Virus record (IMG/VR): IMGVR_UViG_3300044639_001767
Length of the DNA stretch: 12,558 nucleotides
Source of the DNA: a virus
Strand: one strand, 5' to 3'
Part shown: positions 5,792-6,529 of the stretch, piece after piece
Position numbering within the stretch: position 1 is the first letter of the stretch
How the letters are laid out: every line of letters begins with the position of its first letter
Program-made: the position numbers and the translations under genes
Notes under the pieces: generated by a model
Database searches by the model: none
Seen by the model: only the letters and a program-made list of their open reading frames with translations
Told to the model about the DNA's origin: nothing

Positions 5792-6280
5792 ATGTTTATC
5801 AATAACAAATATACCTCTTGGTATATCTCATTGGTTAGTAATGCTCAAACTAGAAATTTAGATAGATCTGTCTATACTGAAAAACATCATATTATTCCCA
5901 AGAGCCTAGGGGGCAATGATGCAAAAGATAATCTTGTTAGACTTACTGGCAAAGAACATTTTGTAGCACATTTATTACTTACCAAAATGACCTTTGGGGT
6001 CAATGCAAGAAAAATGGCCTTTGCCTTGTGGCGGATGACACAAGATAATAAGAAACGAGACAGGTTCCGAATGTCTTCTCGGCAATATCAAAATATCAAA
6101 ACTGGCATGAGCGAGGCAATGAAGGTACATAACAAAGGCAAGAAACTTTCTCCAGAGCATATTCAGAAAGTAAAAGAGGGAATAGCAGCAAAAGGCGGGG
6201 CACATAATAAAGGCAAATCTATGAGCGAGGATCAGAAACACACGCGCCTTTTGGCTAGGGGTGATTGGGAATGTTCATAA
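5792..6280 (+). CDS. HNH homing endonuclease with NUMOD3 DNA-binding repeats, 162 aa as currently open.
   Basis: GGAG lies 6 nt upstream of the ATG at 5792. The HNH motif is EKHHIIPKSLGGNDAKDNLVRLTGKEHFVAH. NUMOD3-like repeats are present (NKGKKLSPEHIQKVKEG, NKGKSMSEDQKH). Confidence 0.8.
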   Translation: MFINNKYTSWYISLVSNAQTRNLDRSVYTEKHHIIPKSLGGNDAKDNLVRLTGKEHFVAHLLLTKMTFGVNARKMAFALWRMTQDNKKRDRFRMSSRQYQNIKTGMSEAMKVHNKGKKLSPEHIQKVKEGIAAKGGAHNKGKSMSEDQKHTRLLARGDWECS

Positions 6281-6529
6281 GAAACTCGCCAAAAAATATC
6301 TCAAGGGGTTAAGAGAAGAGCCGCAGATAGATCTAAACCCTATCAGAAAGGCATTCCTAGATCTCGTATGACATTTGTGTTACAGAATTCAATTACTCAA
6401 GAGCAGGTGGAAACCTGTAATTTGAGACAGTGGTGTGTATCCCAAGGATTCTCTAGTGGCATGATTTATCTGAATAAATCTCCCTGGAAGATAATATCCA
6501 AGGTACCCTTACATAAGGGACAATTGTAA
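5792..6529 (+). pseudogene. The same HNH endonuclease including the 82 in-frame codons after the TAA at 6278-6280 (ETRQKISQGVKRRAAD...KVPLHKGQL). The stop codon replaces the conserved Glu of a NUMOD3 SEET motif.
   Basis: Frame continuity verified by hand (6278 minus 5792 equals 486). The downstream sequence looks like the remainder of a NUMOD3 repeat plus a C-terminal DNA-binding tail. A G-to-T change (GAA to TAA) would explain the stop. Confidence 0.5.

Follow-up and report, generated by a model that had tools for sequence, protein, structure and literature searches.

The locus examined here lies in a 12,558-nt stretch of viral DNA (IMG/VR record IMGVR_UViG_3300044639_001767; the whole stretch is referred to below as the window) and raises one question. 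A single 245-codon frame, spanning positions 5792-6529 on the + strand, is interrupted by one in-frame TAA, and it may represent a disabled homing endonuclease gene, a shorter enzyme that still works, a protein made in two forms or a mere error in the sequence. The frame begins with an ATG at 5792 and ends with a TAA at 6527-6529. The internal TAA at 6278-6280 occupies codon 163 and is followed by 82 sense codons (6281-6526), and the peptide across it reads ...GDWECS*ETRQKISQG... (the asterisk marks the stop). An initial annotation of this DNA had reported that the frame runs 82 codons past the TAA, and both its coordinates and the peptide it quoted proved exact. In the program-made list of open reading frames the same frame appears as two pieces, 5708..6280 and 6368..6529. 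The features of the locus are as follows.

5698..5791, + strand: conserved 5' leader of the endonuclease cassette, with hairpins at 5715-5737 and 5742-5761 and a GGAGA motif
5792..6280, + strand: truncated open reading frame of 162 codons plus the premature TAA, with the HNH domain, a helical region and two NUMOD3-like helices
5879..5959, + strand: HNH catalytic motif, residues 30-56 (E-K-H-H-I-I-P-K...D-N-L-V-R-L-T-G-K-E-H), intact and upstream of the stop
6137..6319, + strand: three NUMOD3-like helix repeats, residues 116-133, 141-157 and 160-176, from sub-threshold Pfam matches and the AlphaFold model
6278..6280, + strand: premature TAA, ancestral GAA (Glu163) according to the alignment, with a G to T transversion at 6278
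6281..6529, + strand: orphaned 3' part, 82 sense codons plus the original TAA, in frame and with no more lesions
6365..6514, + strand: predicted C-terminal alpha/beta domain, residues 192-241 (beta-beta-alpha-alpha-beta), missing from the truncated product
6548..6573, - strand: GC-rich hairpin and T-run, the predicted intrinsic terminator of the convergent MVP-like gene, 19 nt beyond the endonuclease stop

The endonuclease gene is located between a tRNA-like gene and a major-vault-protein-like (MVP-like) gene, both of which are on the minus strand, and it has its own leader. Read from the letters, the Shine-Dalgarno-like GGAGA of this leader occupies 5782-5786, 5 nt upstream of the ATG. The leader RNA has a predicted fold of -27.7 kcal/mol (z = -2.75), and in its first hairpin pairing is kept through two double changes relative to L002, a contig of a sister lineage that is described below. 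GC content of the endonuclease gene is 0.37-0.42, compared with 0.49-0.55 in the adjacent MVP-like gene. On the right, the minus-strand hairpin at 6548..6573, whose stem of 11 pairs includes 8 G-C pairs and precedes TTTTCTTTCT, marks the edge of the cassette and is kept in the sister lineage. On the left, homology to the sister lineage restarts at 5698, 3' of a non-homologous segment. This segment, directly upstream of the cassette (5523-5697 in the window), measures 136-175 nt and carries different tRNA genes in each lineage: the sister has an 88-nt tRNA(CAU), the window a tRNA-like gene that is interrupted. The tRNA-like gene adjoining the endonuclease was recognised neither by Rfam (E<=1) nor by ARAGORN with default settings, and no exact match to its 3' half was found in IMG/VR.

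We identified an intact version of the gene in a closely related lineage. A large protein search returned an uninterrupted 245-aa protein (P0001) that was 97% identical to the repaired translation of the window's frame, and the 82 post-stop codons were 98% identical to its C-terminus. P0001 is encoded in the same syntenic slot, running from the MCD-like and 76-aa genes to the MVP-like gene, in nine contigs of the sister lineage (L001-L009). The 82 codons also align with the conserved C-terminal region of 16 more distant full-length relatives; judged from these alignments, the sequence beyond the stop is not a chance continuation of the frame. All five syntenic sister contigs that were aligned read GAA at the position of the premature stop, in agreement with the GAA to TAA mutation that the initial annotation had proposed. 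That annotation had also placed the stop at the Glu of a NUMOD3 repeat, which holds in part: the nearest allele does have Glu there, but the position is variable in the family (E, L, C, P, A, N, D, S or V among relatives), and the conserved Glu of the motif S-x-E-T-[RK]-x-K-I-S corresponds to codon 164.

A single-base difference from an intact allele of 97% identity is also what would be seen if the TAA were a sequencing or assembly error and the true genome read GAA, one of three options offered in the initial annotation. We further checked the occurrence of the truncated form. The exact 162-aa product was present in 74 blocks of the assembly collection, and in its 90% cluster it occurred on 40 contigs from NCBI, JGI, ENA and Logan; 12 more contigs had alternative-start or partial forms that end identically (...GDWECS). 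The NCBI assemblies with the truncated product were GCA_043536185.1 and GCA_043537725.1, the JGI contigs came from several metagenomes, and SRR27422569 and SRR27430815 are among the samples with this contig. An identical product on more than 40 contigs from these four source collections, obtained by different groups with different pipelines, refutes the error option. In addition, the TAA co-segregates with other lineage-specific changes: within the gene, 19 codons differ between the window and L001, the G to T at 6278 among them, leaving ~18 other substitutions that accompany the stop. The chance that the true genome has GAA is, in our view, negligible.

Fifteen contigs of the window's own lineage were fetched, 8 of which span all of 5492-6700. 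All 15 were 100% identical to the window wherever they overlapped this region, and those that cover the site read TAA. Outside the region, same-lineage contigs differ from the window at few sites, and the fibre repeats (23-333) vary. All contigs retrieved by exact look-up of the 76-aa protein encoded upstream carry the truncated allele. In total, ~52 contigs had truncated forms versus ~7 counted with intact forms (P0001, P0125 and P0126), yet 20 P0001-bearing contigs were read separately from this count. The G to T change at 6278 is real, fixed in all sampled members of a near-clonal lineage and not present in the sister lineage.

With regard to its family, the gene is, by homology and motif content, a predicted free-standing T4 Mob-type HNH homing endonuclease gene. 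The repaired protein matched phrog_655 ('homing endonuclease') with E=7.2e-43. When used as a tblastn query, the protein matched 1080 phage records, the annotated hits having 30-40% identity; the best annotated match was the 'MobE homing endonuclease' of Sinorhizobium phage phiN3, and further matches came from T4-like phages of Klebsiella, Yersinia, Cronobacter and Erwinia, with genes annotated as MobD-like or HNH homing endonucleases. Neither the gene region nor the whole window had a megablast match among 50,697 phage records, so the gene has no named close relative in that collection. Scores for the Pfam HNH model (cut-off 21.4 bits) were borderline, with 21.9 for the 162-aa product, 20.7 for the repaired protein and 19.7 for P0001. 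Residues H32, H33, N47 and H56 were invariant across alignments of 18 and 35 relatives, and PF01844 was matched by 32 of the 35. A family profile searched against PDB matched McrA and a group II intron maturase at their HNH motifs.

The NUMOD3 part of the assignment is less clear-cut. A G-K-x-x-S-x-E pattern is seen in three helices of the endonuclease, and the Pfam NUMOD3 model (PF07460) matched at residues 116-147 of P0001 and 162-170 of the repaired protein, with 17.1 and 13.4 bits, respectively, both lower than the gathering score of 20.4. NUMOD3 was found at E<=0.01 in 20 of the 35 relatives (best, 7.7e-17). The label HNH-NUMOD3 given in the initial annotation is therefore sound for the intact HNH motif and for repeats of NUMOD3 type, although NUMOD3 itself scores under the curated cut-off. 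The cassette is intergenic, lies outside any intron or intein and differs in composition from the adjacent MVP-like gene. An endonuclease-free site was also sought, and the gene was present in every syntenic contig retrieved.

The phage that carries this cassette is uncultured, related to the 'huge' phages and probably very large. Several features of the window raised a giant eukaryotic virus as its source, including the MVP-like gene, PTH2, a homospermidine-synthase-like gene and a tRNA insertion at 37/38. This origin was ruled out by the SD-like motifs found before most genes, by a fibre protein that belongs to phage structural families and by the huge-phage affinity of the MVP-like gene.

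We also noted several features of the locus itself. In the phage collection, the only matches of the MVP-like neighbour were from uncultured 'huge phages' of 462-735 kb. A scan of viral and metagenome contigs for this neighbour yielded relatives of just 59% and 38% identity, and no other window genes were found near it in the two viral loci with 59% identity, which were the ones checked out of five loci, the other three being from metagenomes. The window's lineage has lost a tRNA(CUA) and a 189-aa gene, as well as an ATP-grasp gene and a 120-aa gene. A 25-nt frameshifting deletion in a winged-helix gene (2824-3081) was specific to this window.

To describe what the truncation removes, the intact allele was modelled with AlphaFold (pLDDT 87.4). 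The model has the HNH domain and a helical N-terminal part at residues 1-114, three helices (121-133, 146-157 and 163-180), then a flexible linker and a compact beta-beta-alpha-alpha-beta domain at 192-241 with pLDDT of 89-95. The third NUMOD3-like helix is hit by the stop at its very first residue, so that this helix is lost, as are the linker and the C-terminal globular domain. The domain was kept in 17 of 17 full-length relatives, in which W214 is invariant and E204 nearly so. On its own, the 82-residue tail gave no match in Pfam or PHROGs, and the sequence-profile search of PDB that matched the HNH motifs returned nothing for the C-terminal domain. By fold, the best match of this domain, a weak one, was I-HmuI, the intron-encoded HNH enzyme of Bacillus phage SPO1 (PDB 1u3e).

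The C-terminal domain is presumed to be the target-recognition (DNA-binding) module. The initial annotation had expected the truncated product to keep the HNH nuclease and to lose part of a DNA-binding tail, and the model bears this out, with the catalytic motif upstream of the stop and the lost part consisting of a NUMOD3-like helix and a conserved globular domain. Since Mob proteins combine HNH with a presumed DNA-binding C-terminal domain (PMC2790892), loss of target recognition, and with it of homing, is the most likely consequence. We infer that the truncated enzyme has lost, or largely lost, its site-specific homing activity.

The 162-aa protein could nevertheless still fold, bind DNA and nick. 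It retains all catalytic residues, a good Shine-Dalgarno sequence and ATG, and the conserved leader. It might then be a working nickase with relaxed or altered specificity, a domesticated nuclease or some other functional isoform, and the more frequent sampling of the truncated allele than of the intact one would fit such a role. Mob-like HNH-NUMOD3 proteins that are naturally 162-172 aa long and have no C-terminal globular domain are also known (P0020, P0027, P0036, P0045 and others), which shows that a protein of such a length can be viable. These proteins have HNH and one or two NUMOD3-like motifs, are similar in length to the truncated product and share its N-terminal HNH and helical region with 45-57% identity. 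However, they diverge after residue ~115-137 and have a conserved tail of their own (..SELWYKRHAETHKGK..). They form a separate subfamily, 45-49% identical over ~137 residues, whose ends are not homologous to codon 163, whereas 17 of 17 closer full-length family members retain the C-terminal domain. Homologs that end naturally at this point, which the initial annotation had raised, are therefore not what these relatives represent. The frequency of the truncated allele may just mirror the abundance of the phage lineage that carries it. On balance, a functional short enzyme appears unlikely.

Another possibility is that the C-terminal domain is still produced, either as part of a full-length protein made at low level by suppressor-tRNA readthrough or as a separate polypeptide that starts at ATG 6368 and cooperates with the first part. 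The downstream frame is fully intact and has a low dN/dS (see below), although a recent mutation predicts an intact downstream frame equally well. The 53-codon ORF at 6368-6529 would start at residue 193, next to the first strand of the predicted domain (192-199); against its use, no SD-like motif is present at the right distance upstream of ATG 6368. For readthrough, the sister lineage carries a suppressor-like tRNA(CUA), so that relatives of this phage do have suppressor tRNAs. But a tRNA with this anticodon decodes TAG and not TAA, and a deletion in the window's lineage cuts through the anticodon arm of its gene and leaves it truncated. A search of the window and 18 related loci, as opposed to a complete genome, turned up no tRNA(UUA).

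The use of stop codons in the neighbourhood also argues against readthrough. TAA ends 10 of 14 neighbouring genes checked, making it the commonest genuine stop locally, and it is also the original end of this gene. The context of the premature stop is TAA-G, a strong termination signal in bacteria, and SD-like motifs upstream of most genes point to ordinary bacterial-type translation. Stop-codon usage and tRNA content also led us to reject ochre suppression and an alternative genetic code. Moreover, the in-frame stop is restricted to one near-clonal lineage; the sister lineage has a sense codon there, as do all 16 of the more distant full-length relatives, which is not the pattern of a conserved recoding site. 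The readthrough option of the initial annotation thus found no support in TAA usage or in the tRNA genes of the fetched loci, and we consider residual full-length synthesis or two cooperating parts very unlikely. Equally improbable is the more specific idea that the nonsense codon created a selected two-piece or dual-form system, in which a 162-aa nickase would act with a separately translated or readthrough C-terminal recognition domain. If it were true, the endonuclease of the abundant TAA lineage would be down-regulated or re-targeted, not dead.

We then return to a gene cut short by a nonsense mutation, for which the age of the stop is the relevant question. Besides codon 163, no second lesion (frameshift or stop) was present in the endonuclease frame, and no polymorphism was detected in the gene among the 15 same-lineage contigs; together, these observations suggest that the mutation is young relative to the split of the two lineages. 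With no polymorphism in the TAA lineage, variation within it is uninformative on relaxed selection. Between the window and L001, dN/dS (Nei-Gojobori) was 0.147 in codons 1-162 and 0.128 in codons 164-245; the changes are unpolarised, and the low downstream value would also fit selection that still acts on the tail. The latter value is based on 2 nonsynonymous and 4 synonymous differences from P0001/L001 beyond the stop (binomial P=0.02 versus neutrality), and one of the two replacements, C209, is shared with the intact variant P0125. For the endonuclease gene dS was 0.086, close to the 0.118 of the adjacent MVP-like gene, so the cassette has been inherited vertically together with its flanks since the two lineages separated. 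Neither relaxed selection nor further lesions were seen after the stop; this is consistent with a very recent event and provides no positive evidence of decay. Of the three options in the initial annotation, a freshly inactivated element fits best, given the lack of a second lesion and a dN/dS of ~0.13 on both sides of the stop.

Overall, the gene is quite probably an ordinary, recently disabled free-standing Mob-type homing endonuclease gene that was cut short by one G to T nonsense change. In the window's lineage, the single substitution at 6278 turned Glu163 from GAA into TAA. Translation now stops after 162 residues, and the product retains the HNH domain and two NUMOD3-like helices but is missing helix three together with the conserved globular domain at its C-terminus, which is presumed to recognise the target in enzymes of this class. 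Site-specific homing would be lost or largely lost. The gene may be at the start of the degeneration phase that selfish endonuclease genes go through when all genomes of a population are occupied and empty target sites have run out. Disabled homing endonuclease genes of this kind are predicted by the cyclical invasion-degeneration-loss model of Goddard and Burt (1999).

Beyond annotation the finding is of little importance, but it does offer a clean natural example of the first step in the decay of a homing endonuclease. The intact allele co-circulates in the sister lineage and was sampled in a similarly numbered ENA assembly run. In annotation, the two pieces should be treated as one truncated homing endonuclease gene or pseudogene instead of two hypothetical proteins, and the pair of intact and truncated alleles would be a convenient test of the role of the Mob C-terminal domain in target recognition. 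The surrounding locus, with its swapping of tRNA cassettes, its lost suppressor tRNA and its MVP-like gene, may be of more interest than the stop itself.

Among known systems, the closest are the Mob endonucleases (MobA-E), of which MobE is characterised. Mob proteins have a conserved N-terminal HNH domain and a protein-specific, presumed DNA-binding C-terminal domain, and recognise a bipartite target; T4 MobE nicks its target and drives homing (PMC2790892, PMC2988022). The window gene resembles them in having an N-terminal HNH domain followed by a distinct C-terminal part and in being located between genes of a large phage as a free-standing cassette, and its structured 5' leader is similar to the RBS-sequestering hairpins of Aeh1 mobE (PMC2988022). 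It belongs with them by homology, catalytic motif and cassette anatomy. There are differences as well: the window gene is only 30-40% identical to these enzymes and is truncated by a nonsense codon; it resides in an uncultured phage, beside an MVP-like neighbour that matches just the 462-735 kb 'huge phages'; and it has its own leader on the strand opposite to its neighbours, whereas the Mob gene is a promoter-less operon insert.

A disabled HNH homing endonuclease alongside an intact allele also has a precedent in I-TevIII, which is 'defunct' in T4 and intact in phage RB3 (PMC2790892), so that in both cases an HNH gene was disabled in one lineage and remained intact in a relative, which is the textbook picture of a homing endonuclease gene in degeneration. 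Disabled homing endonuclease genes next to intact alleles are already well known, and the window gene is an uncharacterised new member of this group. It differs from I-TevIII in the way it was lost: I-TevIII is intron-encoded and was inactivated by deletion, whereas the window gene is free-standing, carries a single nonsense substitution and is otherwise pristine.

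The tRNA cassette adjoining the endonuclease is, judging from sequence comparison, one that was swapped between the window's lineage (near-clonal contigs sharing the TAA allele) and the sister lineage, whose endonuclease is uninterrupted. Three features are involved:

5519-5643, minus strand: tRNA-like gene, directly upstream of the endonuclease in divergent orientation
5687-5659, minus strand: promoter-like site of this tRNA-like gene
L002:5944-6031: tRNA(CAU) of the sister-lineage contig L002, 88 nt, with a long variable arm

The acceptor stem, D-arm, T-arm and encoded CCA of the tRNA-like gene are clean, and its anticodon loop carries a structured 48-nt insertion at position 37/38. 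ARAGORN reported it as 'tRNA-Pro(CGG)' solely in intron-search mode, and it had no Rfam match at E<=1. We consider the cassette swapped because the positional counterpart in L002 is non-homologous and contains a different tRNA, tRNA(CAU). Three further genes are grouped with the tRNA genes:

3594-4061, plus strand: PTH2-type peptidyl-tRNA hydrolase
9131-9733, minus strand: PP-loop (TilS-like) protein, 200 aa
10969-12372, minus strand: saccharopine-dehydrogenase/homospermidine-synthase-like protein

Co-occurrence of the TilS-like protein with the sister-lineage tRNA(CAU) hints that AUA decoding is supplied by the phage.

A second tRNA was lost from the window's lineage together with an adjoining 189-aa gene, both of which are present in the sister lineage:

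L002:4792-4867, minus strand: suppressor-like tRNA with anticodon CUA ('tRNA-Pyl' by ARAGORN)
about 4407-4441: remnant of tRNA(CUA)
about 4392-4415: hairpin at the deletion junction

The breakpoint lies within the anticodon arm, at a AGAGACCC microhomology, and the junction hairpin has an inverted loop compared with L002. What looks like a further lineage-specific loss involves the following region:

9737-9883, minus strand: 48-codon ORF (counterpart region L002:10123-11297)

The L002 region, flanked by the PP-loop and 243-aa genes, encodes a 270-aa ATP-grasp protein (R2K_3/R2K_2) and a 120-aa protein; at this site the window's lineage has the single 48-codon ORF and nothing else. The 243-aa gene (9965-10696, minus strand) also contains one copy of a repeat:

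10504-10596 and 12446-12538: 93-nt direct repeat, 95% identity

The second copy, just upstream of the homospermidine-synthase-like gene, probably lies at the start of a paralogue extending past the window end.

Variation was also found within the window's lineage:

5-2185, plus strand: tail-fibre-like protein ORF, with a Peptidase_S74 chaperone domain at its end
2824-3081, minus strand: winged-helix (HTH_39) gene, with a 25-nt deletion after position 2912

The fibre ORF opens with many tandem 51-nt repeats (17 aa, ..NTAVG.SSL..NT.G..) within window positions 1-600. Contigs that are nearly identical elsewhere differ in the copy content and sequence of these repeats, as would be expected of a hypervariable receptor-binding region. 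The winged-helix deletion shifts the frame of the final 29 residues in this window only; the 25 nt are present in all 12 other fetched same-lineage contigs reaching the position and in L002, and the C-terminus common to these is conserved and differs from that of the window. Unlike the stop in the endonuclease gene, the winged-helix lesion occurs in this contig alone and is therefore either a genuine rare variant or an assembly error.

The minus-strand gene convergent with the endonuclease is an unusual one for a phage to carry:

6601-9090, minus strand: MVP-like protein, 829 aa, with major-vault-protein domains

Its domains are MVP_shoulder (E=3.7e-19) and Vault_3 (E=3.8e-07), and its sole matches among 50,697 phage records were three uncultured 'huge phages' (462-735 kb, 37% identity).

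Finally, hairpin 1 of the endonuclease leader (5715-5737) has a sister-lineage counterpart at L002:6101-6120. Two compensatory double changes preserve its pairing (CCTGTTG...CAACAGG in the window, CCATTTG...CAAATGG in L002). This suggests that the hairpin has a function as an RNA or DNA structure, and that its role is possibly regulatory, as in Aeh1 mobE.
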